A stretch of DNA of 64,000 nt from a virus (taxonomy: Duplodnaviria; Heunggongvirae; Uroviricota; Caudoviricetes). How positions within the stretch are numbered: position 1 is the stretch's first letter; every line of letters begins with the position of its first letter. The translations under genes and the position numbers were made by a program. The stretch is taken from IMG/VR virus record IMGVR_UViG_3300035698_009402, positions 51,659 to 115,658 of that record; one strand, given 5' to 3'. Positions 6,452-55,171 of the stretch are shown piece by piece. Under the pieces are notes generated by a model. It ran no database searches and was not told where the DNA came from. It saw only the letters and a list, made by a program, of their open reading frames with translations.

Positions 6452-6656
6452 GTTTTTATTAATAGATGATAGTATTAATAATTTAATGGCTATTAAAAGA
6501 AAAATTAATGACTATGAATTAGAGGTAGAACTTGCTGCCTCTATTATGCTCAATAAAAATCTTAAAAACGATGAATTAATCGAAATGTTACATTTTCTGA
6601 TAAAAGCAGTAGAAAATAAAGAAGTTAAAAAAGTAGCAGAACTAACAAAGCACTAA
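6444..6656 (+). CDS. hypothetical protein
   Basis: 70 aa ORF, translationally coupled to the upstream ORF. Confidence 0.4.
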   Translation: MSKFLLIDDSINNLMAIKRKINDYELEVELAASIMLNKNLKNDELIEMLHFLIKAVENKEVKKVAELTKH

Positions 6657-6720
6657 ATTTTTTAAAAAACAATTTGCTATGATGTTAAAAAATTTCTATC
6701 TTATAAAGGAATAGGGAAAA

Positions 6721-7197
6721 ATGTTAGACAAAATTATAAGTGGAGGTCAATCAGGAGCTGATGTAGCTGGTCTTGATGCTGCTATAGAATTAGGCATACC
6801 TACTGGAGGTACTATGCCTAACAAATTCAAAACTGAAAATGGTAATAAACCAGAGTATGAAAAATTATATAATATGATTGAAGATGGTCATAGTAATTAT
6901 ATATTTAGAACAGAACAGAATGTTATAAATAGTTCTGGTACTTTACTATTAGGAAATATAAATAGTGCGGGTACTAAATTAACTATTAAATATTGTTCTT
7001 GGTTTAAGAAACCTTATTATATAGTACCTTTTCCTAATATTGAATTAAAGAAACTCAGTTTATCTGTTTGGATTTATCATAATAAAATTAATATATTAAA
7101 TGTAGCTGGTAATAGAGAATCTACTAATCCAGGTATATATAATTATACTAAATATTATTTACTTAAGGAGCTATATGAATTTAATAGAACATTTTAA
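6721..7197 (+). CDS. SLOG-family protein (PF12694 'putative molybdenum carrier'-like)
   Basis: N-terminal IISGGQSGADVAGLDAAIELGIPTGGTMP matches the GGQTGVDRAALDAAlelgIpcGG signature. Confidence 0.5.
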   Translation: MLDKIISGGQSGADVAGLDAAIELGIPTGGTMPNKFKTENGNKPEYEKLYNMIEDGHSNYIFRTEQNVINSSGTLLLGNINSAGTKLTIKYCSWFKKPYYIVPFPNIELKKLSLSVWIYHNKINILNVAGNRESTNPGIYNYTKYYLLKELYEFNRTF

Positions 7198-7543
7198 AGA
7201 TAAAACTATGGGATATTTAATAACTGATCCTGTAGACTATATGAATACTGATTTAGAAATCTTAATAAATGACGACTTTACTATTGCTGGACAGTATATA
7301 GGGACAGCTAATATAGTAATAGCTCAGCATTATATACATTATTATCTATATGATAATGAAGTATTTGGAGATAATTTTGCTGATTATTCTGATATTTCTA
7401 CTAAAGTATGGAATATAGTATTAAATGAATTAATTGAAGAACACTTAGTAGAAGAAACCCCTGACAGTAAAAGAAGGAATTTTATAGTAATAACCAATGA
7501 AGATTATACACCTAGTGAACCAATACAAGAATTGGTACAATAA
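7175..7543 (+). CDS. hypothetical protein
   Basis: 122 aa acidic ORF. Confidence 0.4.
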   Translation: MNLIEHFKDKTMGYLITDPVDYMNTDLEILINDDFTIAGQYIGTANIVIAQHYIHYYLYDNEVFGDNFADYSDISTKVWNIVLNELIEEHLVEETPDSKRRNFIVITNEDYTPSEPIQELVQ

Positions 7544-7913
7544 CTATAATAATAATTTTTATAACAACCTATTAGATATAGCTATTAAAGTATCTGTTGT
7601 AGATAATAAAATTCAAACCAGTAGTTGTAAATATAAAGATAAAATATTTTATATCCGTATAAATACTAGACAAGCTACTGAAGATATTCTAGAATACAGT
7701 TTATATAATACAGACTTTGAAATAGGAGACTACATAGGAACATATGAGGATAAGTTAACCATAATTATATGCCATGAGTTAGCTCATGTATATAGTTTTA
7801 TAGATGCAGGTATGTATAAACATATTGTAGAACAAAATCCTCATGGAGATAATTTTCAAAATCATTACAGAATATTACGAAACCATTTTGTAAATTATCG
7901 AGAAGCCGCCTAA
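7497..7913 (+). CDS. HExxH zinc-metallopeptidase-like (SprT-like) small protein
   Basis: IICHELAHVYSF motif; one of three small HExxH proteins in this window. Confidence 0.4.
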   Translation: MKIIHLVNQYKNWYNNYNNNFYNNLLDIAIKVSVVDNKIQTSSCKYKDKIFYIRINTRQATEDILEYSLYNTDFEIGDYIGTYEDKLTIIICHELAHVYSFIDAGMYKHIVEQNPHGDNFQNHYRILRNHFVNYREAA

Positions 7914-7959
7914 AATTAGGGGCTATAATTAATCTTGCTTATAAAAGGAGAATATAAAG

Positions 7960-8340
7960 ATGAATACAATATTACTAAATTTTGACCAACTTTTTAATGG
8001 ATGTGCTGATTGGCAGGACACTATTAGAAAAACTTTCGGACTACCTTTTAACGTAGTTAAACAAGGGAATGACTTAGTATATGAATTAAGTTTAGCTGGA
8101 TATGCTAAAGAAGATATTGAAGTTAATGCAGAAGCCGGCGTAGTTAGAATAAAAGCTTCTAAAGACGATGATGAAGTAGAATATAAACATAAAGGATTAA
8201 CTTATAGAGATATAATGTCTTCTATTCCTGTTCCTAATATGTATATAGTATCTAAAGTATCTTATAAAGACGGTTTACTGAGGATTCATTTTTCATTAAC
8301 CAATACACCTAACAAAACTAAGATTACCATTGAAGACTAA
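7960..8340 (+). CDS. small heat-shock protein (Hsp20/alpha-crystallin family)
   Basis: 126 aa; alpha-crystallin domain pattern (ELSLAGYAKEDIEVNAEAGVVRIKASK ... LLRIHF). Confidence 0.7.
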   Translation: MNTILLNFDQLFNGCADWQDTIRKTFGLPFNVVKQGNDLVYELSLAGYAKEDIEVNAEAGVVRIKASKDDDEVEYKHKGLTYRDIMSSIPVPNMYIVSKVSYKDGLLRIHFSLTNTPNKTKITIED

Positions 8341-8365
8341 GGTAGTAAATATAAAAAACCAATAA

Positions 8366-8590
8366 TACGAAGTCTATATAGGTAGACCTAGTATTTTTGG
8401 TAATCCTTATCCTGTAGGGAAAAACAGAACCAGAAGTATAGAATTATTTGAAAAGTATTTCCTAGAGAGAGTAAAAACCGATAAAATATTTGAATTAGAA
8501 GTAAAAAACTTAAAAGGTAAAATATTAGGATGTTTTTGTAGCCCTAATTTATGCCACGGAAATATAATCATTAACTATTTAGAGAAGTAA
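8366..8590 (+). CDS. DUF4326-like ORF lacking a canonical start codon
   Basis: Open frame after an in-frame TAA at 8363; YIGRPSIFGNPYPVGKN...LGCFCSPNLCHGNIIINYL matches the DUF4326 pattern; no ATG/GTG/TTG in frame. Confidence 0.3.
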   Translation, partial: YEVYIGRPSIFGNPYPVGKNRTRSIELFEKYFLERVKTDKIFELEVKNLKGKILGCFCSPNLCHGNIIINYLEK

Positions 8591-8591
8591 A

Positions 8592-9185
8592 ATGATCAGC
8601 ATTGACAGATACCATACATTAGTATTAAACGCGGACTATAGTCCTATCAACGTGTTAAAACTTGCTACTATTCCAGTGCAGGATGCTTTAACACGAGTAT
8701 TCAATGGTACCTGTCATGTAGTAGAAACTTATGATAGAACCATTAAAACTCCTAATATAGAGAATCAAATTCTTCTTCCTAGTGTTATTGCTAGGAATCA
8801 GTTCGAGCATTTACCAAAAGAAATTACTAGTAACCCAGTAGCTGAGTATCTTTATTATAGAGATCACGCGGTTTGTGCTTACACAGGTGAACCCCTTACT
8901 CTTAGAAAAGGTAGACATAATACTTTAACTATTGATCACGTAATCCCTAGAAGTAAGGGTGGTACCAATACTTGGGATAATGTAGTTGCTAGTTTAGGTA
9001 GTATAAACTTAGCTAAAGGCGATAGTATGCCTACAGGAATGTGGAAACCTAAAAAGAGAGCTTATAAACCTTCTTATTACGACCTAGTTAATGCTAGGAA
9101 AAAATTTCCTATTGTAGTATTTAATGAGAATTGGATTCCATACTTAGGTGATTGGGAAGGTGAAATTGAGGTTAGGAAACTATAA
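8592..9185 (+). CDS. HNH endonuclease
   Basis: TIDHVIPRSKGGTNTWDNVVASLGSINLAKG is an HNH motif (H-N-N/H with conserved Asp/Asn). Confidence 0.65.
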   Translation: MISIDRYHTLVLNADYSPINVLKLATIPVQDALTRVFNGTCHVVETYDRTIKTPNIENQILLPSVIARNQFEHLPKEITSNPVAEYLYYRDHAVCAYTGEPLTLRKGRHNTLTIDHVIPRSKGGTNTWDNVVASLGSINLAKGDSMPTGMWKPKKRAYKPSYYDLVNARKKFPIVVFNENWIPYLGDWEGEIEVRKL

Positions 9186-9661
9186 TGGCTATTTATAATG
9201 TAGGAAATATGTGGGATAGATTAAAAGAACCTCACAATGAAATATTTCTAGTTACTACTAATAATGTTTTAAAAACTAATGGTGAATTAGTAATGGGGGC
9301 TGGAGTAGCAAAACAAGCTACTCTACGATTCCCTAAAATAGCTTTTATTATGGGAGAAACTATCAGAAAACTACCTACTGATTATAACTTCTTTATTTTA
9401 GATGAAGTACCTTCATGGAATACTTTATATGGTCAGCATATTTATGTAGGAGCTATACAGACTAAAAGACATTATAGAGATAATAGTGATATTGAATTAG
9501 TAAGAAATAGTATTAAGAAACTAAATGAATTTGCTAATACTATTAATACTAATATCAATTGCCCTTTACCTGGAGTAGGGTTGGGGGGTTTAAAAGCTGA
9601 AGTAGTGAAAAAACTAACTAATAGTTCTCCTAATAATGTTAAATACTGGACTTTGCCCTAA
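9185..9661 (+). CDS. macro-domain protein (ADP-ribose binding/processing)
   Basis: LVTTNNVLKTNGELVMGAGVAKQA resembles NAANxxLxxGGGVxxAI; C-terminal CPLPGVGLGGL resembles FPxIGTGxxGxP. Confidence 0.5.
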   Translation: MAIYNVGNMWDRLKEPHNEIFLVTTNNVLKTNGELVMGAGVAKQATLRFPKIAFIMGETIRKLPTDYNFFILDEVPSWNTLYGQHIYVGAIQTKRHYRDNSDIELVRNSIKKLNEFANTINTNINCPLPGVGLGGLKAEVVKKLTNSSPNNVKYWTLP

Positions 9662-9759
9662 GGAGGTATATTATGAAACACAAAAAACCTATAACTAAGA
9701 AGAAAAAAGATAAAAAAAAGTCCTATAAGTAAATTATGTTATTTTATAGTTGCAGAAAA

Positions 9760-9793
9760 GGGTTAGTAGGGTTATACTCTACTAACCCTTTTT
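9760..9793 (+). terminator. rho-independent terminator
   Basis: 10-bp stem GGGTTAGTAG/CTACTAACCC with a 9-nt loop, followed by TTTTT. Confidence 0.6.
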
Positions 9794-9811
9794 GATTGGA
9801 GAAAGAAGAAA

Positions 9812-10279
9812 ATGAAAACATTACTAATAACATTACTAACCTTATTGTTATCAACAAACATATCATATAGTAAAGACACAGAAACAGAAATTCAAATGAC
9901 TAAAGTTCCTACTACTGCTAACTGTAGTATATTATTATCTGAAAAAGAACATATTAGTTTAAGCGCTAGATTACGTCAAAATTATAAAGAATTACCCTTA
10001 TTTAACTCTAATACTGTTTTTGCTTTTAATAAAGATAATACCCAGTCAATAACATATTCAATAGTTTTATATGTTAATCCCGTAAAAGAATCTTATACTT
10101 TATTAGAGTTTCAAACAATAACAAATTTAATTACTAAAAAGAAGAAAAAAAGAGAATGTATAAGACTTGTAGGTCTTTACTCTCATGAAAATTTTACTGA
10201 CAGCATTAATTTATTAACAGAATTATTAGAAGATAATAAATCTATATTTGATATACCTAATGACTCAGAGCTTAACTAA
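9812..10279 (+). CDS. secreted/envelope-targeted hypothetical protein
   Basis: N-terminal signal peptide MKTLLITLLTLLLSTNISYS. Confidence 0.45.
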   Translation: MKTLLITLLTLLLSTNISYSKDTETEIQMTKVPTTANCSILLSEKEHISLSARLRQNYKELPLFNSNTVFAFNKDNTQSITYSIVLYVNPVKESYTLLEFQTITNLITKKKKKRECIRLVGLYSHENFTDSINLLTELLEDNKSIFDIPNDSELN

Positions 10280-10299
10280 TTATTTAAATAATTTTTTAA

Positions 10300-10327
10300 T
10301 TGCATAATTATTATTTTCCTTTATAAT
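10300..10327 (+). promoter_or_regulatory. promoter-like TTGCAT-N16-TATAAT
   Basis: Upstream of the nuclease/AAA+ gene pair (CDS at 10352). Confidence 0.35.
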
Positions 10328-10351
10328 TGTATTATAATAGAAAGTAGATAT

Positions 10352-11038
10352 ATGCACGATTATTCAAAATTACAAAACATAAAGGCAACAACTTTAGAAA
10401 CTGGAAGAACTTATCATACTCCCGCAGGAGATTTTTCAAGTATTACAACTATACTCGGAGCTACTGCTGATAAAAGATGGATGGATAGGTGGAAACAAAG
10501 TTTAGTTAAGAAATTAGGTAGTGAAGAAGCTGCTATAGCCGAAATGAAATCTATTTCAAAATATGCTACAGATAGAGGTACTAAAGTTCACGAATATGCT
10601 GAAAGATATTTCAACGGAGAAAATATCTTACCTGAATTAACCAAAGATAATGAATACTATGATATTCAGAATATGACTAAATCTCTAATAAAAGAAACAG
10701 AGACTTATGTAGACGAAATTTGGGCACAAGAAATAGCAGTATACAGTGAAAAATTAGGATCTGCTGGAAGATTAGATATGGTAGGTATCTGGAAAGGTAA
10801 ACCTACTATTATAGATTTTAAAACAAGTAAAAAGAAAAAATATGAATCAGGTATAGGTGACTATAAAATACAATGTTGTTTTTACGCTGAATGCCATAAT
10901 GAGATATATAAAACCAATATTAAGAATTATGCTATAATTATAGCTGTTCAAGATTTAGGAGTACAGGTCTTTGAAGGAAGTACCATATATTCTAAAGGCT
11001 TGTTGTTAAATAGAATTAATACTTACCATAGTATGTAA
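10352..11038 (+). CDS. PD-(D/E)xK-family nuclease-like protein
   Basis: GRLDMVG ... IIDFKTSKK (D...(D/E)xK) plus C-terminal Cys cluster CCFYAECH (Cas4/RecB-like pattern). Confidence 0.45.
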   Translation: MHDYSKLQNIKATTLETGRTYHTPAGDFSSITTILGATADKRWMDRWKQSLVKKLGSEEAAIAEMKSISKYATDRGTKVHEYAERYFNGENILPELTKDNEYYDIQNMTKSLIKETETYVDEIWAQEIAVYSEKLGSAGRLDMVGIWKGKPTIIDFKTSKKKKYESGIGDYKIQCCFYAECHNEIYKTNIKNYAIIIAVQDLGVQVFEGSTIYSKGLLLNRINTYHSM

Positions 11039-11063
11039 CTAAGTGGTGAGCAAGGGAGATACT

Positions 11064-12116
11064 ATGGAAAATAAAGATTTTTATAACGTATTAGGAAAAG
11101 AATTTGTAGAACCTGAAATAGATGAAAAATCTATAAAAATAGGAAAGTCTGATAAACTAGATTTAGATGCAAGTGTATGGGCTGTATCAGGACATTATTG
11201 GTCTGGTACAGGGGCTACTGCTGAAACATTGCAGGAAGGGATTTATAGCTGTTATACTAAGATGGATGGAACTCCTTATTTAACAAAGCAAGAAATACAA
11301 GTCGATAAATTAATTGAGTTACCAGATGATCCTACTACTGAAGTATTAAGTCACGTATCAGATTTTTGGAAAAGAGAAGATAAATTCCAGGAATTAGGTT
11401 TTATCTTTAAAAGAGGTATACTATTACACGGACCACAGGGTTCAGGAAAATCTAGTACTATATATAGATTAATGAAGCAAATAGTTAAAGAAGATGGAAT
11501 AGCTTTAATAATCAATAGTCCTAGTAGTGCGGTTGCTTGTATATCTTTAATAAGATCTATAGAGCCTAATAGAAAAATAGTAGCTATTATGGAAGATATA
11601 GATGATTTAGTAAGATACTATGGAGACAGAACTTTAACTTCTTTATTAGATGGTAGCGAAAATGTAAATAGAGTAGTTTTCGTAGCAACAACTAATTATC
11701 CTGAAAGATTACCTCCTAGATTATTACAGCGTCCAAGTAGATTTGATGTAGTTAAATACATAGGAATGCCTACTCTGGCTGCTAGATTTAAGTATATTAA
11801 ATCTATATTATCTGCAAAAGTTACTCCTTCTGAGATAGAAAGAATAGCTGATAAAACAGATGAAATGAGTATTGCTCAAATTAAAGAAGTAATTTTACTA
11901 CTTTATGTATTTGATATAGAGTTAACAGAAGCTGTAAATAGAGTTAAAAACCTAGGAGTAATAGGTAAAGAAGATATCAATGATAATGTATATAGATCTT
12001 TAAAACAGCCTATGTTAGAAGAACAAATAAATATACCTGAAGGACAAACAGCTTTAGATGATAACGGACAAAGCTATAAGTTTGTGGATAGTAAATGGAT
12101 AAAATTAAAAAATTAA
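11064..12116 (+). CDS. AAA+ ATPase (classic AAA family)
   Basis: Walker A LLHGPQGSGKSS; second region of homology VVFVATTNYPERLPPRLLQRPSRFD; start moved to ATG 11064 with GGGAGA RBS. Confidence 0.6.
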   Translation: MENKDFYNVLGKEFVEPEIDEKSIKIGKSDKLDLDASVWAVSGHYWSGTGATAETLQEGIYSCYTKMDGTPYLTKQEIQVDKLIELPDDPTTEVLSHVSDFWKREDKFQELGFIFKRGILLHGPQGSGKSSTIYRLMKQIVKEDGIALIINSPSSAVACISLIRSIEPNRKIVAIMEDIDDLVRYYGDRTLTSLLDGSENVNRVVFVATTNYPERLPPRLLQRPSRFDVVKYIGMPTLAARFKYIKSILSAKVTPSEIERIADKTDEMSIAQIKEVILLLYVFDIELTEAVNRVKNLGVIGKEDINDNVYRSLKQPMLEEQINIPEGQTALDDNGQSYKFVDSKWIKLKN

Positions 12117-12253
12117 CTTTTATAGACATAATTGCAGAAACTAGGGGATAGATTTGAAATAATTGTTCAAGAAAATTTAAGTAGTTTACTATTATTTGAA
12201 ATACGAGCAGATACTAGACTAGGGACTTTCAATGATAGGGATAATAATATAAC

Positions 12254-12730
12254 ATGAAGAAAAAAATAAGTCAAAACTTTACACTAAATGAATTTACAAA
12301 AAGTCAAACAGCTTTACGAGAAGGAATAGATAATTCCCCTACACAAATACACTATAAAAATATAGTAGCATTAGTAGAAAATATACTACAGCCTTTGAGA
12401 AATGAGCCAGATGTAGGTCCTGTAATTATTACTAGTGGTTATAGAAGTGAATTACTAAATAAAAAAGTAAAAGGATCAGATAATAGTCAGCACTGTAAAG
12501 GTGAAGCAGCAGACATAGAATGTTTTGAACTAAGTACTTATGATTTAGCTAAGCATATTGAAATTTATTATGACTTTGATCAGTTAATTTTAGAATTTTA
12601 TATTCCCGGCGATAAAAATAGTGGATGGGTACATGTATCCTATAATAGAAGAAGCAATAGAAAACAAGTATTAACTGCTAGTAAAAATTCTAAAGGTAAA
12701 ACTGTATACACTCCCGGCCTTATTAAGTAA
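12254..12730 (+). CDS. peptidase M15 (zinc D-Ala-D-Ala carboxypeptidase-like) endolysin
   Basis: SGYRSELLNKKVKGSDNSQHCKGEAADIE = M15A H..D...H zinc-binding pattern. Confidence 0.65.
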   Translation: MKKKISQNFTLNEFTKSQTALREGIDNSPTQIHYKNIVALVENILQPLRNEPDVGPVIITSGYRSELLNKKVKGSDNSQHCKGEAADIECFELSTYDLAKHIEIYYDFDQLILEFYIPGDKNSGWVHVSYNRRSNRKQVLTASKNSKGKTVYTPGLIK

Positions 12731-13206
12731 TGTTAGCTCTATTTGGTAGTAAGATAATAATGTATCTTGTACTAGGAGGTATTTTAGTAAGCGTTTTAGT
12801 AGGTGGATATTTTTATTGGCAGCATATAATTCAAGAAAATGCTATATTAAAAAATAATCAAAAAGTACTAGAACAGGGAATACAAACTCAAAGAGATGCT
12901 ATAATTAATATGCAGGAAGAAGTAGCTGAGGTAAAATTACAAAATGAACAAGTAACTCAGAAAAACGAAGCAATATTTAATGATACTTTAAGATTACAAG
13001 AAAAATTAAATAAAAGGTTAGATCTTTTAGCAGTAAAAAAACCAGGATTAATAGAGAAAAGAATAAATAAAGGTACTTCTGATTCTAACAGATGTTTAGA
13101 AATAGCAAGTGGATCGCCTTTAACTGAGGTAGAAAAAAATGCAAATAGAAAATCTCAATTTAATACTATATGTCCCAGTATTGCTAACCCTCTTAGCATT
13201 AACTAA
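12730..13206 (+). CDS. i-spanin-like protein (N-terminal TM, periplasmic coiled coil)
   Basis: TM helix LVLGGILVSVLVGGYFYW then a charged coiled-coil; directly after the endolysin. Confidence 0.4.
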   Translation: MLALFGSKIIMYLVLGGILVSVLVGGYFYWQHIIQENAILKNNQKVLEQGIQTQRDAIINMQEEVAEVKLQNEQVTQKNEAIFNDTLRLQEKLNKRLDLLAVKKPGLIEKRINKGTSDSNRCLEIASGSPLTEVEKNANRKSQFNTICPSIANPLSIN

Positions 13207-13504
13207 TTGTACTCCTTCAACTAAGGTAATAGAAATACAATCCAAACCTATAGAAAAAATTAGATTAGAAATACCTAGTCCTAGACCTGCCAATTTGAAC
13301 GAAGTTCAATGGCGTGTTATCACTAATGAAACCGCAGAAGGCTTATTAGAAGAAAATATAGTTCTATTCGGTATTAGTGTAGAAGATTACAAAAACTTAG
13401 CAACTAATAACGGAGAGTTATTAAGAGTTTTAGAAGGACTATCCAACGTATTAATTGCTTATAGAAATTATTACGAACCAAAAGTACTGACGGAAGAAAA
13501 ATAA
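13139..13504 (+). CDS. o-spanin-like outer-membrane lipoprotein (overlapping reading frame)
   Basis: Lipobox LLALTNC after a signal peptide; starts inside the 3' end of the i-spanin ORF in another frame (Rz/Rz1-like). Confidence 0.4.
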   Translation: MQIENLNLILYVPVLLTLLALTNCTPSTKVIEIQSKPIEKIRLEIPSPRPANLNEVQWRVITNETAEGLLEENIVLFGISVEDYKNLATNNGELLRVLEGLSNVLIAYRNYYEPKVLTEEK

Positions 13505-13506
13505 TC

Positions 13507-13535
13507 TTGCTTGTTAGGCTTACTTATTCTATACT
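13507..13535 (+). promoter_or_regulatory. promoter-like TTGCTT-N17-TATACT
   Basis: Upstream of the CDS at 13569. Confidence 0.4.
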
Positions 13536-13568
13536 TATCAAACAGTTAAACAAAAAAGGAAAATAAAA

Positions 13569-13955
13569 ATGGCTAAAGCACGAAATAACAAGTCCAAATA
13601 TACCTCTAACGGAGAAATTCCCACAACTAATCAGAAACTTAAGAACTCTATTCGTAAGAATAGAGGGTTTAGTTTAGAGAGTTTATCTCAATCTCAAGCT
13701 ATGAAGAATAGTATTTTAGAACTTAAAAACCCTAATCCTGAAGAGAAAAGGCTTCAGGAAAAGTTTAAGCAGGAGCGAGCTATTAGTGTAGCAGTAACTC
13801 CCTACCTTAATAGATATAGGAATCTAGGAATCACTTTTGCTGAAGCTAAGCACTCATTTCTAAAGGATACACTACCTAAGCTTATTGATAAGTATAAGGC
13901 TAAGGGTAGAAAGCTTAGAGAAGCTGAAAGAAAGTTATCAATTAGAGTTACTTAA
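13569..13955 (+). CDS. hypothetical basic protein
   Basis: 128 aa, K/R-rich; promoter-like TTGCTT-N17-TATACT upstream. Confidence 0.45.
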   Translation: MAKARNNKSKYTSNGEIPTTNQKLKNSIRKNRGFSLESLSQSQAMKNSILELKNPNPEEKRLQEKFKQERAISVAVTPYLNRYRNLGITFAEAKHSFLKDTLPKLIDKYKAKGRKLREAERKLSIRVT

Positions 13956-14284
13956 TGACTGATGAAGTATTTACTGTAAGACCTATTAGTAAAAATAAGT
14001 TCAATATTTGTAAATTTGCAGATGATAAAAGAGTTACTGGAGATAAAGATGCTCACAGTAGTTTTACAGTAACTGTTTATAAGAATTATACACATTGTGA
14101 TTGCCCTGGATTTAGGCATCACAAAGATAAGCCAGAAGCGCATAAGCATTGCAGAATTGTGAATTTCGCTACGCGAAATCTAGAACAATATATAGGCTAT
14201 GCCTTCTGGTTTAATTCTTTTGACGATGTTGTATGCAACAATTTTATTAATTTTAAAGATATAGAAAGAGATTTTAATGTATGA
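13955..14284 (+). CDS. hypothetical Cys/His-rich (zinc-finger-like) protein
   Basis: HCDCPGFRHHKDKPEAHKHC cluster; ATGA overlap with the upstream gene. Confidence 0.4.
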   Translation: MTDEVFTVRPISKNKFNICKFADDKRVTGDKDAHSSFTVTVYKNYTHCDCPGFRHHKDKPEAHKHCRIVNFATRNLEQYIGYAFWFNSFDDVVCNNFINFKDIERDFNV

Positions 14285-28042: not shown

Positions 28043-28735
28043 ATGAATAAAGAACAATTAGAAAAAGATATCCTAGACGAACAACTATTAGAATACTTAC
28101 CAAATAAAAACGTAGTTTTTGCGGTTTTACACGGTAGCAGGGCTTACGGATTAAGTACTAAAGATAGTGATTATGATGTTAAATTCGTCTGGATTGAAGA
28201 TTATGAAACCTATACAGGAATATCAGAAGTAAAAAATACTGGATATAGCGAACAAAAGGATAATGTAGACGTAAGCGGTTGGGAATTGAAGCATTTTCTT
28301 AATTTAGTTAGAAAAAATAATATGACTACTATGGAAACTTTATTTTCTCCTATACTAAGTGTTGATATAGATAACTATTTAACCTTAATTTTAGAAGTTG
28401 CAGCAAACTTTAATAGAAAAAGTTTAGGTATTCAGTATCATAAAGCTAGTAAGAGTTATTACTACAAATACTTAGAAACAAGTAAACTTAAATATTTAAT
28501 TAACTCTTTTAGATGTTTTAATAACGCAGTATATATAAGAAAAAATTGTAAAATACCACCTATTACTGCTAAAGAATGTTATGATAATATCCTTCTTAAG
28601 GGGGTACATTATGATATAACTAACTTTAATACTTTATTAGATGATTTTAATTATGAGTGGTACTCTACAGATCATCAAATAGATACTAAAGTATTAAACG
28701 ATATATTTAGGGAAACAGCTCTTAGCAGTAAATAA
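28043..28735 (+). CDS. Pol-beta-superfamily nucleotidyltransferase-like protein
   Basis: VVFAVLHGSRAYGLSTKDSDYDVKFV = hG[GS]x9-13Dh[DE]h NTase signature. Confidence 0.5.
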   Translation: MNKEQLEKDILDEQLLEYLPNKNVVFAVLHGSRAYGLSTKDSDYDVKFVWIEDYETYTGISEVKNTGYSEQKDNVDVSGWELKHFLNLVRKNNMTTMETLFSPILSVDIDNYLTLILEVAANFNRKSLGIQYHKASKSYYYKYLETSKLKYLINSFRCFNNAVYIRKNCKIPPITAKECYDNILLKGVHYDITNFNTLLDDFNYEWYSTDHQIDTKVLNDIFRETALSSK

Positions 28736-28778
28736 GTATTGCTAAGAACTGTTTTTTCTTATAAAATTATAAATATGT

Positions 28779-28863
28779 TGGGAAGTGGCGGAACTGGTAG
28801 ACGCGCTAGACTGTTAATCTTGTGCCGTAAGGCTTGGGGGTTCGAGACCCTCCTTCTCAGCCA
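28779..28863 (+). tRNA. type-II (Leu-like body) tRNA with Asn-type anticodon loop CUGUUAA (GUU), anticodon assignment uncertain
   Basis: TGGGAAGTGGCGGAACTGGTAGACGCG closely resembles a bacterial tRNA-Leu 5' half; anticodon stem CTAGA/TCTTG (one mismatch), loop CTGTTAA; 12-nt variable hairpin GCC-GTAA-GGC; T-arm GGGGG-TTCGAGA-CCCTC; G + CCA. Confidence 0.5.
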
Positions 28864-28871
28864 AAAATTAT

Positions 28872-28958
28872 TCCTGGGTGGCAGAGCGGTAATGTTCCTC
28901 ACTGTTAATGAGTGGACTTCGTAAGAAGCGTAGGTTCGATCCCTACCCCTAGGAGCCA
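28872..28958 (+). tRNA. type-II tRNA, anticodon loop CUGUUAA (GUU) or alternative fold UAA (Leu); irregular acceptor/T junction
   Basis: Acceptor TCCTGGG/CCTAGGA + G + CCA with one extra nt after the T-stem; variable hairpin CTTC-GTAA-GAAG; T-arm GTAGG-TTCGATC-CCTAC. Confidence 0.4.
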
Positions 28959-28966
28959 AAATTTAT

Positions 28967-29041
28967 AGTAGAGAATCCGATTGGCGAGGAACGCGCCTGA
29001 TTAGCGTGTGGTAGAGGGTTCGATTCCCTCCTCTACGACCA
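28967..29041 (+). tRNA. tRNA, anticodon loop CUGAUUA -> GAU (Ile?), pyrimidine at 37
   Basis: Acceptor AGTAGAG/CTCTACG (A1-G72 mismatch) + A + CCA; anticodon stem CGCGC/GCGTG; T-arm GAGGG-TTCGATT-CCCTC. Confidence 0.5.
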
Positions 29042-29061
29042 AATATACTAAAGGAAAATAT

Positions 29062-29475
29062 ATGACTCGTATTAATATAGTTGATCCTATAGAATTAATG
29101 GATCAACATTTAGTAGCTGAATATAGAGAAATCTTGATGATAGGATCTTCATTACAACGGTCTTTAAGAGGTAAGAGTTGGAATAAGAATAAGATACCTG
29201 ACTCATTCAGATTAAATAAAGGTCATGTATTATTTTTCTACGATAAAGGTCTATATTTACAAAAACGGTATGAACAATTAAGAAATGAAATGATTAGGAG
29301 AGGAATGTCTCCTAATCCCGATAGAAAATTCAATGTAGAGTGTTTTCCTAATTTCATATATAGAAATGATTGGACTCCTTCCGACAAAGATAGAAACATT
29401 ATTAGAGAACGATTATCTTTTAGGATATCAGAAAAACCTAATTGGTATAGATATGAGGGTAAATTAGTTGAGTAG
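29062..29475 (+). CDS. denV: pyrimidine-dimer DNA glycosylase (T4 endonuclease V family)
   Basis: MTRINIVDPIELMDQHLVAEYREI closely matches T4 EndoV [24 protein letters not shown]; start trimmed to ATG 29062 to clear the tRNA at 28967-29041. Confidence 0.7.
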   Translation: MTRINIVDPIELMDQHLVAEYREILMIGSSLQRSLRGKSWNKNKIPDSFRLNKGHVLFFYDKGLYLQKRYEQLRNEMIRRGMSPNPDRKFNVECFPNFIYRNDWTPSDKDRNIIRERLSFRISEKPNWYRYEGKLVE

Positions 29476-29540
29476 CTCAATGATAGAGCAGGGTCCTGAT
29501 AAGACCAAGACTTAAGGTTCGATTCCTTTTTTAGCTACCA
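29466..29540 (+). tRNA. tRNA-Ile (anticodon GAU)
   Basis: TAGCTCAATGATAGAGC D-arm; anticodon arm GGGTC-CTGATAA-GACCA; T-loop TTCGATT; A + CCA; 5' end abuts the denV stop. Confidence 0.6.
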
Positions 29541-29563
29541 ATTTAAACGTAGTTTAATATACT

Positions 29564-29719
29564 ATGTGTTTATACTGTAAATCTAAAGAAAAATATAAAA
29601 GAAGTAAAAGAAGTAAATTAGTGCATTATGAATTTGTTTGTAATGATTGCTTTGATGCTGAAAATAAAATGTTACAGCTAACATATCAAAAATATAAAGA
29701 ATATTTAAACGGAGTTTAA
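29564..29719 (+). CDS. small zinc-ribbon-like hypothetical protein (51 aa)
   Basis: CLYC...CNDC paired Cys motifs. Confidence 0.35.
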   Translation: MCLYCKSKEKYKRSKRSKLVHYEFVCNDCFDAENKMLQLTYQKYKEYLNGV

Positions 29720-29862
29720 TAACGTGGAATATAATATAGACAAAGGTATAATTATAGAACAGTTAACTCAGGTTATAGAGTCTATGAGTGGTAAAGATTT
29801 AATAAAACTATATAACGAGCATTTTGATACAAATCATTATGCAGATGAATACGGATATATTT

Positions 29863-30336
29863 ATGAAAAACGATAATATTATATTTTTAGACATGGATGG
29901 AGTTTTAGCTAGTGCTAGAATCTTTCATGCAGCTAATGATTCGGGTATGTGGAGCAGTATTGATATTCATGCTGCTAAATTTTTGGACCGAATTTGTTAT
30001 AAGTGGCCAGCTAAAATTGTTATTAGTAGTACTTGGAGATATTTAACAGATCAAAAAAACTGGCCTTATATTTTTCAAGGAACTGATTTGTATAGTCATT
30101 TTCATAATCAGTGGAAAACTCCTAGAACTGACAAAGGATTTAGAGGCGATGATATTAATAAATGGATGGATTCAGTAAATTTCAAAGGAAACTATCTAAT
30201 TTTTGACGACAGTAGCGATTTTTACGACGATCAAAAGAAAAATATGATTCACACTGATGTAGATGATGGTATGCTTACTAAACATTATAGACAGACAATT
30301 GACTTATTATATGGAAGATATGGTGTTAAATTATGA
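29863..30336 (+). CDS. HAD-superfamily hydrolase-like protein
   Basis: Motif I IIFLDMDGVLAS (DxDG[VT]L) near the N-terminus. Confidence 0.4.
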   Translation: MKNDNIIFLDMDGVLASARIFHAANDSGMWSSIDIHAAKFLDRICYKWPAKIVISSTWRYLTDQKNWPYIFQGTDLYSHFHNQWKTPRTDKGFRGDDINKWMDSVNFKGNYLIFDDSSDFYDDQKKNMIHTDVDDGMLTKHYRQTIDLLYGRYGVKL

Positions 30337-30746
30337 GACGAGTAACTTTAAAAGAAAAAATAATGAACGCTACGATTGAAGAATGTAATTTATCTATAGA
30401 TGAAGGGTTTTTAACTTTATGGTTGACTCTAAAATTAGAAGATGGTTTTTCAAAAGCTTTTGGCGGATATAATTTAGGAAAAACATGTTCTTTCTTCACA
30501 GACGAAGTAAAACTTTTTAATAAACAAGATTTTTTATCAGATAATAAAGATAATTGTAATTTGGCTAATTGGTTTATTAACAGTTGTATGTATACTGTAG
30601 GAGTACATAATTTAAAAGATTTTAAAGGTAAAAATATTAGAATCAAGGTAGAAAATCCAGGATTTGGACGAACTATTGTAAGAATTGGTCATATTATCGA
30701 AGATAAATGGTTTTTCCCTAAAGAAGATAGAGAGTTATTACAATGA
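30333..30746 (+). CDS. hypothetical protein
   Basis: 137 aa ORF; ATGA overlap. Confidence 0.4.
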   Translation: MRRVTLKEKIMNATIEECNLSIDEGFLTLWLTLKLEDGFSKAFGGYNLGKTCSFFTDEVKLFNKQDFLSDNKDNCNLANWFINSCMYTVGVHNLKDFKGKNIRIKVENPGFGRTIVRIGHIIEDKWFFPKEDRELLQ

Positions 30747-30913
30747 TTTTAGTAATTCCAGATAATTTTGAATGTGATACAGAATTATTAATTAAATGTG
30801 ATGTAATTATAGAAATTACGAATAATAAATATATTATTACAAAAAACAGAAACGGCCTTTCAGGTGATTCTTTTGAATCATTGGAAAAGGTACTTGAATG
30901 TATAGGAAAATAA
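30743..30913 (+). CDS. small hypothetical protein (56 aa)
   Basis: ATG overlapping the upstream stop; fills the gap before rtcB. Confidence 0.3.
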   Translation: MILVIPDNFECDTELLIKCDVIIEITNNKYIITKNRNGLSGDSFESLEKVLECIGK

Positions 30914-30914
30914 A

Positions 30915-32135
30915 ATGTTACTTAGAGGAAAACACGCAGAAATTAAAACTTGGACAGAAGGTGTTCATTTGGACGGTAATACAGTAGGTCAGCTAATTAA
31001 GACCGCTAGTTTGCCTATAATTTATAAACATATTGCTGTGATGCCTGATGCTCATTTAGGTATTGGTAGTACTGTGGGTAGTGTTATTCCGACAATTAAA
31101 GCGATTATTCCTGCTGCTGTCGGGGTGGATATTGGTTGTGGCATGGTAGCTGTAAAAACTACTTTACATGCTGATGATTTACCTGATAGTTTAAAAGAAT
31201 TAAGAATGGAAATAGAAGCTAATATTCCTCATGGAGGTCCTGGCAAGAAGGGAAGTTGGGGAGATACTAGATATTCTAGTTGGGAACATCGTCCTACTAA
31301 TATTAGTGTTAAATCTAATAAATTTGCTAAGACTTTCTTAAATATTAGAAAGCATAATCAAATTGCTGAAGCAGATAAAAATAATGCTAGTACTCAATTA
31401 GGTACTTTAGGGAGTGGTAATCACTTCGTAGAAGTGTGTTTAGATGAAAAATCTAATGTATGGGTTATGCTACATAGCGGATCTAGGGGCATTGGTAATA
31501 GAATTGGAAGATACTTTATTCAGAAAGCTATTAGAGAATGTGAAAACTTAGATATTAAATTAGTTGATAGTAACTTAGCTTATTTAATAGAAGGTGGGAA
31601 GCATTTTGACGATTACATTGAAGGAGTTAATTGGGCACAGAACTATGCTGCTTTCAACAGAGAGATAATGATGGAGCAGGCTTTGTTATCTTTGAAAAAT
31701 ATCATAAAAGTACCTTTTACTTATGATGTTAAAGGAATTAATTGTCATCATAACTATGTAACTAAAGAGCGTCATTTTGGAGAAGATGTATATGTAACTA
31801 GAAAGGGAGCTGTTAACGCAGAATTCGGTAAGTTAGGTATTATTCCAGGAAGTATGGGTACTAAAAGTTATATTGTTAGAGGAAAAGGCAACGCTGATTC
31901 TTTTAATAGTTGCTCTCATGGGGCTGGTAGGGTATACTCTAGAAGTCATGCAAAGAAAAATTTCACTTTGGAAGATCATTTAAAAGCTACTGAAGGAGTA
32001 GAATGTCGTAAAGATATTGGAGTAATTGATGAAACTCCTGCTGCTTATAAGAATATAGATGAAGTAATGGCTGCGCAGACAGATTTAGTAGATATCGTAC
32101 ATACTTTAAAACAAGTTGTATGTGTGAAAGGATAA
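30915..32135 (+). CDS. rtcB: RtcB RNA 3'-phosphate/2',3'-cyclic phosphate ligase
   Basis: 406 aa; HSGSRGIGNRIG, CHHNYV, SCSHGAGR motifs typical of RtcB. Confidence 0.75.
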   Translation: MLLRGKHAEIKTWTEGVHLDGNTVGQLIKTASLPIIYKHIAVMPDAHLGIGSTVGSVIPTIKAIIPAAVGVDIGCGMVAVKTTLHADDLPDSLKELRMEIEANIPHGGPGKKGSWGDTRYSSWEHRPTNISVKSNKFAKTFLNIRKHNQIAEADKNNASTQLGTLGSGNHFVEVCLDEKSNVWVMLHSGSRGIGNRIGRYFIQKAIRECENLDIKLVDSNLAYLIEGGKHFDDYIEGVNWAQNYAAFNREIMMEQALLSLKNIIKVPFTYDVKGINCHHNYVTKERHFGEDVYVTRKGAVNAEFGKLGIIPGSMGTKSYIVRGKGNADSFNSCSHGAGRVYSRSHAKKNFTLEDHLKATEGVECRKDIGVIDETPAAYKNIDEVMAAQTDLVDIVHTLKQVVCVKG

Positions 32136-32136
32136 T

Positions 32137-32799
32137 ATGTTTAAATATAATTTACATCAGGAAGTAGAAACCAACGATAAAGGTCGAGATTTTATCGTTG
32201 GTGATCTTCATGGTTGTTATGATGCACTAATAACTCAAATGAAATTTGTTAATTTTAACCAGCAAATAGATAGACTTTTTTCAGTTGGAGACCTAGTAGA
32301 TAGAGGTACTCAAAATATAGAGTGTTTATCTTTATTAAATAAACCTTGGTTTTACGCAGTTATGGGTAACCATGATGAGTTTTTTTGGCAAGGCGTATTA
32401 GAGGATTATAGAATAAATCTTTGGGTGGCTAACGGAGGGGGTTGGGCGGCAGATATAGATATGTGTACGCTATCAGGGTATGCAGAAAAAGTAAAAAATC
32501 TCCCCTTAGCTATTACTATTGATAATAAAATTGGTATATGTCATGCTGAACCCGGTATTGCTTATAAACATAATAATAGTTGGAAACAGTATGTTATGGA
32601 CCCTACTACTCAACAAAATAAGATGTGGGGTAGATATGCAGTTACAAATAGTGTAAAAGCTGAATATACAGATATTATTCGTAGTTACCACGGACATACC
32701 CCTTTAAAAATAGTAAAAGATTTAGGACAAGCAAGATTTATTGATACAGGAGCTTGTTTTGGGTATCACCTAACCTTAGAGGAAATTGATTATACATGA
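32137..32799 (+). CDS. PPP-family serine/threonine phosphatase (lambda-phosphatase/ApaH-like)
   Basis: GDLHGCYD, GDLVDRG, GNHDE metallophosphatase signature. Confidence 0.65.
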   Translation: MFKYNLHQEVETNDKGRDFIVGDLHGCYDALITQMKFVNFNQQIDRLFSVGDLVDRGTQNIECLSLLNKPWFYAVMGNHDEFFWQGVLEDYRINLWVANGGGWAADIDMCTLSGYAEKVKNLPLAITIDNKIGICHAEPGIAYKHNNSWKQYVMDPTTQQNKMWGRYAVTNSVKAEYTDIIRSYHGHTPLKIVKDLGQARFIDTGACFGYHLTLEEIDYT

Positions 32800-33020: not shown

Positions 33021-33199
33021 TGATTTTCAATGAATGGCAAAATAAAGGTGTTTTAACGGTGTATGAATTACGAAAGATATTAAATCAATTACCAGAGAAC
33101 ATGCAAATTAGGATTTCTGACGATACAGAAAATAATGACATGGATGTACAAATAGTTGAAGTTTTAGAAGATTGTTTATATTTGGCAGGACAATCCTAA
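33020..33199 (+). CDS. small hypothetical protein (59 aa)
   Basis: ATG overlapping the upstream stop; ends just before the tmRNA promoter. Confidence 0.3.
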   Translation: MIFNEWQNKGVLTVYELRKILNQLPENMQIRISDDTENNDMDVQIVEVLEDCLYLAGQS

Positions 33200-33216
33200 A
33201 AATTAAAAATTTACAT

Positions 33217-33245
33217 TTGCTTTAAGCAGTAAATTTTAATATAAT
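33217..33245 (+). promoter_or_regulatory. promoter TTGCTT-N17-TATAAT driving the tmRNA
   Basis: Exact consensus; predicted TSS ~33252 at the start of the GC-rich tmRNA region. Confidence 0.55.
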
Positions 33246-33251
33246 AATGAA

Positions 33252-33665
33252 AGTGACGTTGAGGAAATATTTGTTGAAACAAATTGAACGATAGACAACA
33301 CCTCGGGGCAGTACCGAGCGCCTCCACCACGAACACACATTCGGGTCGTAATATCGGATAGATATACTTCGAGTGTTGCTCTGATAGGTCGCAGAATGTG
33401 TGTTTTTGATGGGGGCGAAATAGAATCGACTGATATTTATTAGGTAAGTTGAGAATATTTTTTAGTCACTACGATAAACGCAAATGATAATACTTCATAT
33501 GCAATGGCTGCGTAAGTAGTCAAGCGGGGTCAGTAGCCGTACCTAGCACCAGAAATCGGCTACATTTATAATAACTCATATGGCCAGTATTTAGCAATGC
33601 GCTATCGAAGGGGCCACTCTGTCTGACAGCAGGGAAGAAATATTTGTCAAAATATTTAGATATTG
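33252..33665 (+). ncRNA. ssrA: two-piece (circularly permuted) tmRNA precursor: acceptor piece ending CCA at 33329, intervening segment 33330-33410, coding piece from 33411 with tag ORF 33480-33515 (A)NDNTSYAMAA*
   Basis: Consensus promoter 33217-33245; T-arm CTCGG-GGCAGTA-CCGAG + CGCCTCC + A + CCA at 33302-33329; downstream GGGGGCGAAATAGAATCGAC (tmRNA 5' acceptor motif, complementary to CGCCTCC); GCA AAT GAT AAT ACT TCA TAT GCA ATG GCT GCG TAA tag frame; intervening ACACACATTC/GAATGTGTGT helix; GC-rich, ORF-free; 3' boundary approximate. Confidence 0.6.
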
Positions 33666-33832
33666 TGTTATTTTAAATTCAAATTTTCAGTTTGTTTCCG
33701 CTTATGCCCTTTTCTCTTAAGGCATTATACTTACTTATCTCAGCAAGAGTAGCTACTTAGTGGAGATATAGATTTAGTATTAAAGAGATAAAAACTCTAA
33801 GCAAGTTTTTAGGCAAATTGAAATACTTATAT

Positions 33833-37109: not shown

Positions 37110-37184
37110 GTCTTTGTAGCATTATGGTAATGCGTCCGCCTCTAAAACGGAAGAAAACGGGTTCAATTCCTGTCAAAGACACCA
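37110..37184 (+). tRNA. tRNA with anticodon loop CUCUAAA -> CUA (candidate amber suppressor); alternative fold has a 9-nt loop
   Basis: Acceptor GTCTTTG/CAAAGAC + A + CCA; D-arm GCAT/ATGC; anticodon stem TCCG/CGGA with a C-A closing mismatch; T-arm ACGGG-TTCAATT-CCTGT. Confidence 0.5.
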
Positions 37185-39492: not shown

Positions 39493-39586
39493 GCTCCTAT
39501 AGTTTAAAAGTAAAACAGCAAGCTTATACCTTGTATTAGCGGTAGATGACCGCATGATGTTGGTTCAAATCCAGCTGGGAGTACCA
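39493..39586 (+). tRNA. unusually long (94 nt) tRNA; anticodon arm GCAAG-CUUAUAC-CUUGU gives UAU (Ile/AUA?) with a 24-nt variable region containing hairpin GCGG-UAGAUGA-CCGC
   Basis: Acceptor GCTCCTA/TGGGAGT + A + CCA; D-arm GTTT-AAAAGTA-AAAC; T-arm GTTGG-TTCAAAT-CCAGC. Confidence 0.4.
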
Positions 39587-55095: not shown

Positions 55096-55171
55096 TTGCG
55101 GGTAGGCTAACGGTATAGCCATTTGTCTTTGAAACAAACGTATGCGGGTTCGATCCCCGTTTCGCAAACCA
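55096..55171 (+). tRNA. tRNA-Gln (anticodon UUG), U1; isolated inside the ORF-poor block
   Basis: Acceptor TTGCGGG/TTCGCAA + A + CCA; D-arm GGCT/AGCC; perfect anticodon arm TTTGT-CTTTGAA-ACAAA; T-arm GCGGG-TTCGATC-CCCGT. Confidence 0.65.

Follow-up and report, generated by a model that had tools for sequence, protein, structure and literature searches.

A phage-borne, circularly permuted two-piece tmRNA gene with an extended P2 helix in place of pseudoknot 1

We analyzed a 64,000-nucleotide (nt) stretch of viral DNA (here called the window; positions 51,659 to 115,658 of IMG/VR virus record IMGVR_UViG_3300035698_009402) and found that its positions 33217-33675, on the plus strand, are a circularly permuted, two-piece transfer-messenger RNA (tmRNA) gene borne by a phage. 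The gene is real, was read correctly in a preliminary description made from the sequence alone, and is probably functional; its class has already been described. What is new is an architecture that lacks pseudoknot 1 (PK1) and has an extended P2 helix, together with an extra 3′ domain; the phage lineage itself has no relatives in culture or in catalogues. On the sequence evidence we consider it very probable that this is the functional ssrA gene of an uncultured phage of ~31% G+C and that its two-piece tmRNA, whose tRNA-like domain is of the alphaproteobacterial type, forms part of a translation-maintenance module.

Identification of the gene

A scan of the whole window with the Rfam covariance models (cmscan) matched alpha_tmRNA (RF01849) at 33213-33564 with 85.1 bits (gathering score, 50; E = 1.4e-21) and tmRNA_permuted (RF04321) at 33269-33515 with 74.3 bits (gathering score, 47; E = 2.2e-12), and both calls were reproduced when the subregion was scanned. 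The preliminary description had proposed Infernal with Rfam models as one of its checks, and alpha_tmRNA was matched above its gathering score. With the -ps option (95% thresholds), ARAGORN called a “Permuted” tmRNA at 33235-33605 with the tag ANDNTSYAMAA. The permuted order is present, in that the CCA end at 33329 lies upstream of G1 at 33411 on the same strand, with an intervening segment between them. Each of the elements that had been listed (T arm, CGCCUCC, ACCA, an 81-nt segment with its helix, the 5′ half, and the tag frame) was found by direct reading where it had been placed.

A search with the protein encoded by the upstream rtcB gene gave syntenic relatives. One RtcB protein (P0001, 85% identical) is encoded on a 72.9-kb Logan contig, L176; another (P0002, 64% identical) is encoded on nine ENA and JGI contigs, five of which were fetched (L177-L181). 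The L176 and L177 loci are collinear with the window over ~20 kb, at 65 to 80% nucleotide identity, and each has, in the corresponding position, a permuted tmRNA gene with tRNA-Glu next downstream. Between the tmRNA genes of the window and L176 there are at least 15 compensatory base-pair changes and only one mismatch. The double changes are distributed over the acceptor stem (two), the T stem (four), P2a (one), the distal part of P2 (five), and stem 2 of the downstream pseudoknot PK2 (two), and the helix that closes the intervening segment is fully recoded. The acceptor stem reads GGGGGCG/CGCCUCC in the window and GGGGUUG/CAACUCC in L176, with the G3:U70 pair kept and positions 5 and 6 compensatory; the T stem reads CUCGG/CCGAG and GGAAG/CUUCC, respectively. 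These compensatory changes show that structural selection acts on the gene and that it is no relic.

The agreement of covariance models, ARAGORN -ps, and conservation with compensatory changes in syntenic relatives bears out the proposal that this is a phage-encoded, circularly permuted two-piece tmRNA gene. It has also already refuted the idea that a stretch of AT-rich intergenic DNA shows a tRNA-like hairpin and a short frame merely by chance: although ARAGORN gives nothing here at default settings, the Rfam E values (1e-21 and 2e-12), the homologues at the same locus in two relatives, and the extensive covariation leave such a coincidence next to no probability.

tmRNA genes are common integration sites, and the gene might instead be a host-derived remnant or pseudogene, an ssrA fragment acquired by imprecise excision and now decaying as a passenger. 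ssrA fragments are known in phage genomes (PMC9004378, discussion), and a model score that is low relative to bacterial genes, the negative result from ARAGORN at default, and the missing PK1 would all fit such an origin. However, both pieces, the tag frame, and PK2 are all present, and the same locus has been kept across relatives that have diverged to 65 to 80% identity, with at least 15 compensatory changes, a conserved tag, and, in L176, a conserved promoter. The exact 28-mer of T arm plus acceptor is absent from 185,579 species genomes, so the gene was not recently captured from a sequenced host, and there was no integrase among the window open reading frames (ORFs) scanned, which were a part of all ORFs. 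We therefore regard a decaying remnant as very unlikely.

The tRNA-like domain and the intervening segment

The pairing figures given below for the T stem and P2a refer to 84 distinct viral homologues; 122 loci were taken from IMG/VR by tmRNA sequence motifs. The predicted acceptor piece (~78 nt, 33252-33329) was delimited from the Rfam alignments, the 3′ tRNA domain of the ARAGORN -ps call, a helix table, and covariation among these homologues. It ends with the T arm CUCGG-GGCAGUA-CCGAG (33302-33318, by direct reading; loop GGCAGUA), the 3′ acceptor strand CGCCUCC (33319-33325), and an encoded ACCA (33326-33329). All 84 viral homologues have a paired T stem, in which one position shows four pair types. 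Upstream of the T arm lie the acceptor-piece strands of the distal part of P2 (D1, 33252-33257; D2, 33262-33272) and a hairpin (33270-33274 with 33279-33283), and then the P2a strands (33290-33293 and 33296-33298). By eye, the acceptor pieces of three IMG/VR loci (L033, L057, and L048) have UGAUGA...CUGA, which is box C/D or kink-turn like, where others have a GUUGA...UCAAC hairpin.

The 5′ part of the coding piece (33411-33479) was defined from Rfam, ARAGORN -ps, the homologue comparison, and the helix table. It begins with the 5′ tRNA-like half GGGGGCGAAAUAGAAUCGAC (33411-33430, by direct reading), in which the acceptor strand GGGGGCG (33411-33417) pairs over 7 bp with CGCCUCC at 33319-33325 and is followed by a D-loop analogue, AAAUAGAAUCGA (33418-33429), which stands in place of a D arm. 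The identity elements for alanyl-tRNA synthetase (AlaRS) can be read directly: the G3:U70 pair is G33413 with U33323, and the discriminator A73 and the 3′ CCA are present. The sequence features of RF01849 are found in the window, with a T loop of the GGCRGUA type (GGCAGUA), AUAGGAUCGAC, and a score above gathering. Next come the coding-piece strands of P2a (33430-33432 and 33434-33437), a single-stranded stretch, UAUUAGGUAAGUUGA (33438-33452), the coding-piece strands of distal P2 (D2, 33453-33463; D1, 33465-33470), and a spacer, ACGAUAAAC (33471-33479), between distal P2 and the resume codon. P2a has a design of 3 bp, an internal loop, and then 3 to 4 bp, and is 86% paired across the 84 viral homologues, versus 18 to 41% when the partner is slid; one of its pairs swaps between A-U (39 sequences) and U-A (36 sequences). 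Two other pairings were considered. A helix of GUGGAG/GUUGAG with CUCAAC of the acceptor piece was rejected because GUGGAG is invariant while its supposed partner varies, and minimum-free-energy folds that pair the D-loop analogue were set aside since they clash with the conserved tRNA-like domain.

The intervening segment (81 nt, 33330-33410) is closed by a 10-bp helix, in which ACACACAUUC (33333-33342) pairs with GAAUGUGUGU (33394-33403), and this is followed by UUUUGAU directly 5′ of G1. Its predicted fold has a free energy of -29.9 kcal/mol (z = -2.9 versus shuffles). L176 has a 10-bp helix at the same place made of unrelated sequence, UAGCUAUACU with AGUAUAGCUA, followed by UGAU, and in many viral relatives AAACACA pairs with UGUGUUU, followed by AUGAU. 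By analogy with the two-piece tmRNA paradigm, which is reportedly the Caulobacter crescentus molecule of Keiler et al. (2000), the segment would be removed during maturation. The permuted tmRNA of another IMG/VR contig, L001 (IMGVR_UViG_3300007960_004090, 4778-5550, minus strand), has an intervening segment of ~560 nt, in which a 176-aa ORF with its own ribosome-binding site lies between CCA and GGGGG; it has no match in Pfam.

An extended P2 helix in place of PK1

In the closest IMG/VR relatives among the matches listed, a PK1 of ~35 nt separates the conserved UAGGUAAGUGGAG from the resume codon. In the window this interval is just 19 nt (33454-33472), AAUAUUUUUUAGUCACUAC, and PK1 is not present; the acceptor piece of the window has a 5′ extension of ~20 nt, absent in those relatives, that complements these 19 nt. 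The resulting distal P2 comprises 17 bp, AGUGAC (33252-33257) pairing with GUCACU (33465-33470) and AGGAAAUAUUU (33262-33272) pairing with GAAUAUUUUUU (33453-33463). Its calculated duplex energy of -12.6 kcal/mol is reached by 0.3 to 1% of shuffled or genomic controls (p ~0.003 to 0.01). In L176 the same helix (AGUAAC with GUUACU and AGAGAAAAACU with AGUAUUUCUUU) carries five compensatory double changes, four of them in strand D2, and one mismatch. It ends 9 nt upstream of the resume codon and starts ~6 nt after the -10 element, which is the predicted 5′ end of the transcript. Sequence and covariation show three helices that join the two predicted pieces: the acceptor stem, P2a, and, where PK1 would otherwise lie, the 17-bp distal P2.

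Among the matches listed, ~20 other viral tmRNAs also lack PK1 and have a helix 9 nt before the resume codon with covariation of its own; examples are L040, with UUUGAAGA pairing with UCUUCAAA, and L035, with AUAGA pairing with UCUAU. As in the window, distal P2 starts a few nt after the -10 element in the PK1-less permuted tmRNAs of IMG/VR (L040, L035, L098, L107, and L025). Their distal helix, however, is 5 to 8 bp rather than 17 bp, and the distance from G1 to the resume codon is 47 to 50 nt, versus 69 nt in the window; across the viral set the median of this distance is 83 nt and its extremes are 47 and 130 nt. Outside the tRNA-like domain these PK1-less molecules cannot be aligned with the window, so PK1 may have been lost independently.

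Tag frame, PK2, and an additional 3′ domain

The tag frame (GCA AAU GAU AAU ACU UCA UAU GCA AUG GCU GCG UAA, 33480-33515; ARAGORN -ps and Rfam alignment) has no start codon; its resume codon GCA is preceded by GAUAAAC, and it ends with UAA. It encodes ANDNTSYAMAA, or (A)ANDNTSYAMAA when the tmRNA-borne alanine is counted, and the hydrophobic-Ala-Ala end is as in working tags. The tag previously proposed is therefore upheld by an intact frame and by the same tag in the ARAGORN -ps output. The L176 tag, ANDNNSYAMAA, is separated from that of the window by one synonymous and one nonsynonymous change, and the L177 tag is ANDNEAFAVAA. Among the matches listed, the tags of viral homologues are mostly ANDN...LAA, and VAA, MAA, and IAA ends are common too.

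The stop codon lies in the loop of helix 5 (33505-33509 with 33518-33522), and the region of helix 5 and PK2 (33505-33563) aligns with the 3′ conserved block of the alpha_tmRNA model. PK2 consists of stem 1, GGGU/ACCU (33527-33530 with 33541-33544), and stem 2, GUAGCCG/CGGCUAC (33533-33539 with 33557-33563), the latter covarying to GUAGUCC with GGACUAC in L176 and L177.

The Rfam call ends at 33564 and that of ARAGORN at 33605, but a three-way alignment of the window, L176, and L177 shows conservation further 3′, defining a terminal domain at 33564-33675. ACAUUUAWAAUAAC and GUGUUAUUYUAAAU are kept in all three sequences around an insert of variable size. In the window, the closing helix is formed by AAUAAC (33570-33575) with GUUAUU (33667-33672) and AUAU (33578-33581) with 33660-33663; it comprises 6 plus 4 bp here, 9 bp in L176, and 10 bp in L177, and its sequence differs as the helix lengthens. 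Within it, 33581-33585 pairs with 33612-33616 to form a hairpin, which is followed by a candidate pseudoknot (stem 1, 33617-33622 with 33629-33634; stem 2, 33624-33628 with 33645-33649). The insert hairpin loop CUGACA and a downstream UGUCA(G), which can pair, are conserved in the window and L177, two of the three sequences compared, and are candidates for this extra pseudoknot. The fold of the domain has a z score of only -1.85, and the domain rests on three sequences. Rfam searches at E values up to 1 detected no family in the 3′ domain of the window, the glutamine riboswitch included, and no glutamine riboswitch in L177. The transcript probably ends near 33675, where a U-rich tract follows the closing helix, close to the end at 33665 that had been given before.

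The promoter

Read from the sequence, the gene has its own promoter at 33217-33245, consisting of a -35 element, TTGCTT (33217-33222), a 17-nt spacer, and a -10 element, TATAAT (33240-33245), with transcription predicted to start at ~33252. A generic sigma-70 promoter scan made no call at 33217-33245. The exact motif TTGCTT-N17-TATAAT occurs five times on the plus strand of the window (20594, 33217, 51390, 52258, and 52369), versus 0.03 copies expected, each time with an A-rich stretch upstream, and not at all on the minus strand. Near-variants lie at 10300, 28739, and 52161, so that three copies or variants are grouped at 52.1 to 52.4 kb. At the homologous position L176 has TTGCTT-N17-TAAAAT, despite a diverged spacer, 6 nt before the AGUAAC helix strand. 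The preliminary description was thus right that the gene has its own promoter, with a perfect TATAAT and a recurrent motif, but wrong to call it a consensus promoter, since TTGCTT agrees with TTGACA at only 3 of 6 positions: the motif reads as a class specific to this phage and not as the Escherichia coli consensus.

A probable maturation and tagging pathway

The architecture described above comes from sequence and covariation; the steps of maturation and function that follow are modeled on the established two-piece tmRNA pathway (review, PMC3968760). The phage-type promoter TTGCTT-N17-TATAAT would start a single precursor near 33252, which would fold with CGCCUCC pairing to GGGGGCG. Host RNase P would cut 5′ of G33411, and the 81-nt intervening segment would be trimmed back to the encoded CCA at 33329, giving an acceptor piece of ~78 nt and a coding piece of ~260 nt. 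The RNA would be charged by host AlaRS via G3:U70 and A73 and brought to stalled ribosomes by host SmpB and EF-Tu, and translation would resume at GCA 33480 and add the degradation tag (A)ANDNTSYAMAA.

Several observations weigh against a working tmRNA. PK1, a membership feature of tmRNA that is required in the E. coli molecule, is absent from the window. Strand D2 of distal P2 forms A-U and G-U pairs only, and the last three pairs of the helix compete with the local hairpin at 33270-33274/33279-33283. P2a forms only 6 of its 7 pairs, with A.C at the first position, and a single G-to-A change gives the D-loop analogue AGAAUCGA where the family almost universally has AGGAUCGA. The alpha_tmRNA score of 85 bits is far under the 269 bits of a bacterial gene (L157). 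ARAGORN at default thresholds reports 30 tRNAs and zero tmRNA in the whole window and zero tmRNA at 33100-33800. An SmpB gene gave no tblastn match in the window, a weak test because the E. coli SmpB query is approximate. Finally, the transcript ends are predictions, the 5′ end of the acceptor piece (~33252) having been placed from the promoter position.

Some of these points can be answered. Because ARAGORN recovers the gene with -ps, the default miss is a threshold effect; a finding of no tmRNA by ARAGORN had been named beforehand as a refutation, and at default settings that test gave a false negative, whereas with -ps it found the permuted tmRNA. When PK1 of the E. coli tmRNA was swapped for a stable hairpin, tagging was kept (Tanner et al. 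2006, as cited in PMC3968760). Because a helix can stand in for PK1 in the E. coli molecule, the absence of PK1 does not exclude membership among tmRNAs, and a PK1-less version is plausible as a working molecule. With no SmpB detected in the window, host factors are presumably used.

The same peculiarities could also mean that the RNA is expressed and tmRNA-like but has a nonclassical role, either sequestering SmpB or competing with the host tmRNA or else selectively tagging host proteins for amino acid recycling. A tag-less tmRNA-like RNA of mycobacteriophage DS6A inhibits the endogenous tmRNA in E. coli (PMC11915505), amino acid recycling has been proposed as a possible role by Buchholz et al. 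(PMC9004378), and activity could be changed by the lack of PK1, by the altered D-loop analogue, and by MAA instead of LAA at the end of the tag. However, the tag frame is intact, with a canonical GCA after GAUAAAC, a hydrophobic-Ala-Ala end, and UAA, and the tag is conserved in L176 and L177, although a pure decoy would not need one; VAA, MAA, and IAA ends are, moreover, common among viral homologues. We consider a nonclassical role unlikely, although less so than decay of a host-derived remnant, and favor a functional two-piece tmRNA.

Comparison with known tmRNAs

tmRNA genes in phages had been called rare, and permuted ones rarer still, which overstates the case. Buchholz et al. (2022; PMC9004378) found tmRNA in 402 of 18,146 phage genomes, in 133 unique forms, of which 53 are two-piece, and 50 of these 53 came from marine or aquatic samples. 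Our scan of IMG/VR with an alpha-type T-arm-plus-acceptor motif gave at least 120 contigs, and among the matches listed GGGGGCGAAAUAGGAUCGAC stands 8 to 264 nt after CCA in nearly every one. Together these counts indicate that permuted tmRNA is not rare in aquatic phages. ARAGORN recognized 70 of the 122 IMG/VR loci at default (52 were missed) and 82 with -ps, and it misses the L176 orthologue even with -ps, so that ARAGORN-based counts of phage tmRNAs are underestimates.

The gene of the window resembles the tmRNAs of the phage Melnitz, of pelagimyophages such as Mosig, and of virome contigs (PMC9004378) in being phage encoded, permuted, and alpha type, with a promoter directly upstream and an ANDN...AA tag. 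SsrA of Melnitz, a Methylophilales phage, is the best INPHARED match to the tRNA-like domain of the window (82% over two pieces), and the IMG/VR relatives share with the window the T loop GGCRGUA, the P2a design, a helix-closed intervening segment, and PK2. There is, however, no overall genome similarity between the window and the marine myophage group. The closest marine-type relatives keep their ~35-nt PK1, which distal P2 replaces in the window; the gene of the window has, relative to the marine myophage tmRNAs, an extra 3′ domain of ~110 nt; and the glutamine riboswitch reported for Melnitz (PMC9004378) is not detectable in that domain.

With the two-piece tmRNA of alphaproteobacteria (Caulobacter crescentus; RF01849) the gene shares its order, a T loop of the GGCRGUA type, AUAGGAUCGAC, G3:U70, P2, a tag beginning with ANDN, and a single downstream PK2. 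It differs from the alphaproteobacterial form in its score (85 versus 269 bits, the latter for L157), in the P2b and P2c model sequences of RF01849, which the window leaves unmatched (marked “v” in the Rfam alignment), in the lack of PK1, and in the G-to-A change of the D-loop analogue. The one-piece tmRNAs of mycobacteriophages (cluster C, Bxz1-like) and of other phages are likewise phage-borne ssrA genes, often beside large tRNA arrays, but the mycobacteriophage type has the standard order and four pseudoknots and belongs to a different lineage (RF00023).

Searches for closer relatives gave little beyond the syntenic contigs. No close relative of the gene came up when IMG/VR, JGI metagenomes, and GTDB genomes were scanned for sequence patterns. 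A metagenome scan with its 5′ 20-mer gave 18 loci, all of them other tmRNAs and mostly one-piece; an IMG/VR scan with the 19-mer of the tag end gave three unrelated one-piece tmRNAs; and one with the T arm plus acceptor of L177 gave only an ordinary tRNA in a high-GC contig. No exact match to the RtcB protein of the window is on record, and RtcB relatives in IMG/VR, at 55% identity or less, were not useful. Against 50,697 INPHARED phage records the window DNA had no similarity at an E value of 1e-5; at E values up to 1 there were only short matches to the tRNA-like domain, in Melnitz SsrA and in unannotated stretches of Rhodobacter, Mesorhizobium, Roseobacter, and Ruegeria phages. No protein of the window is more than 58% identical to one from a cultured phage, with RtcB reaching that maximum.

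The IMG/VR viral contig L017 (IMGVR_UViG_3300017758_004505, 1-14052) shares genes with positions 1-6400 of the window, its proteins being ~50% identical to the products of the minus-strand genes there, including a nucleotide-sugar epimerase. The contig is distantly related to the window. Its tmRNA, permuted and of the alpha type, scores 126 bits, has an intervening segment of 138 nt, and lies in another neighborhood.

The host and a possible exchange of the tRNA-like domain

The gene had been taken to point to the host lineage, but the alpha-type tRNA-like domain is a weak indicator and a hint at best. The OM43 phage Melnitz has an alpha-type tmRNA though its host, which is not an alphaproteobacterium, has none (PMC9004378), and the sister contig L177 has a beta-like domain at the same locus. 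The exact T-arm-plus-acceptor 28-mer had zero matches in 185,579 GTDB species genomes, and a gapped pattern of tRNA-like domain plus tag matched one unrelated Pseudomonadota metagenome-assembled genome in the same collection. A gene for an Rz-like spanin indicates a Gram-negative host.

The permuted tmRNA at the L177 locus (8344-9330, identical in L178-L181) has a canonical T loop, UUCGAAU, together with UGGUUUCGA, an intervening segment of 6 nt from CCA to GGGG, and a different P2, and the T arm of L177-L181 is identical to that of an ordinary tRNA. It has no alpha_tmRNA match, and its best match within the clan is beta_tmRNA with 54 bits, under the family threshold of 84. Its alignment to the genes of the window and L176, both of which have the alpha-type domain, is confined to the part between the resume region and the 3′ tail, where identity is 78 to 85%. 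An HNH endonuclease gene (phrog_2255, E = 1e-29) is inserted here in L177-L181 only; in L177 its end falls within the 5′ edge of the acceptor piece. Because permutation makes the whole tRNA-like domain and P2 contiguous in the DNA, a single exchange could replace them. We therefore put forward, tentatively and as something we think possible but would not bet on, that the tRNA-like domain is an exchangeable cassette and that gene conversion driven by a homing endonuclease retools the tmRNA for a new host, fitting it to the SmpB, AlaRS, and RNase P found there. This idea concerns the relatives more than the window itself.

Genomic setting

The window, with ~31% G+C, is transcribed from one strand from 6.5 kb onward. 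Its phage character is apparent from genes for an endolysin, the Rz-like spanin, HNH endonucleases, an exonuclease, and a DNA methyltransferase and from several phage-only (PHROG) families; it contains no structural genes. Directly upstream of the tmRNA gene is an RNA repair cluster (28043-32799, plus strand) that encodes an RlaP nucleotidyltransferase (28043-28735), a protein with a HAD_SAK_2 phosphatase domain (29824-30336), RtcB ligase (30915-32135), and a calcineurin-like phosphoesterase (32137-32799), in an order that is conserved in L176 and L177; a tRNA-Glu gene follows the tmRNA gene at 33833. ARAGORN places 30 tRNA genes on one strand between 21 and 55 kb. Rfam adds a tRNA at 28967-29038 (plus strand) that is absent from the ARAGORN list. 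Several tRNAs on that list are long (two “Asn” tRNAs of 85 and 88 nt and an “Ile(UAU)” tRNA of 94 nt; see also 28779-28958 and 39493-39586), and their identities may be misassigned.

Near the end of the tRNA block there is a GOLLD RNA, a noncoding RNA of the large, ornate type (RF02032; 55023-55490, plus strand; 169.7 bits; gathering score, 150; E = 7e-46), in which a tRNA-Gln(UUG) is embedded (55096-55171). A tRNA with a CUA anticodon (37110-37184, plus strand), an amber suppressor labeled Pyl by ARAGORN, scores 61.4 bits with the Rfam tRNA model. It raised the possibility of TAG recoding, but TAG ends 10 of the 73 ORFs of at least 80 aa, with no clear read-through pattern in the window; recoding, if it occurs, would have to affect genes that lie beyond the window.

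The placement of the tmRNA gene among tRNA and RNA repair genes suggests a role in keeping ribosomes available during RNA cleavage. With the ~30 tRNAs, RlaP, HAD_SAK_2, RtcB, and the phosphoesterases, the tmRNA would form a module that keeps translation running in infection, for example, when mRNA or tRNA is cleaved.

Implications

The gene shows how a two-piece tmRNA can dispense with PK1, by a P2 helix that is extended to 9 nt from the resume codon, a layout that parallels, in nature, the engineered molecule in which a hairpin replaces PK1. If the tRNA-like domain is indeed an exchangeable cassette, its type would track host switches and not phage ancestry, and the difference between alpha-type and beta-like domains in sister phages warns against assigning hosts by tmRNA type. 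Phage tmRNAs are functionally unexplained, and this gene is a comparatively well-supported example from a previously unsampled phage lineage of ~31% G+C. Its locus, with ~30 tRNAs, RtcB, RlaP, and HAD_SAK_2, lends support to the idea of a module, carried by large phages, for the repair and unblocking of the translation apparatus.

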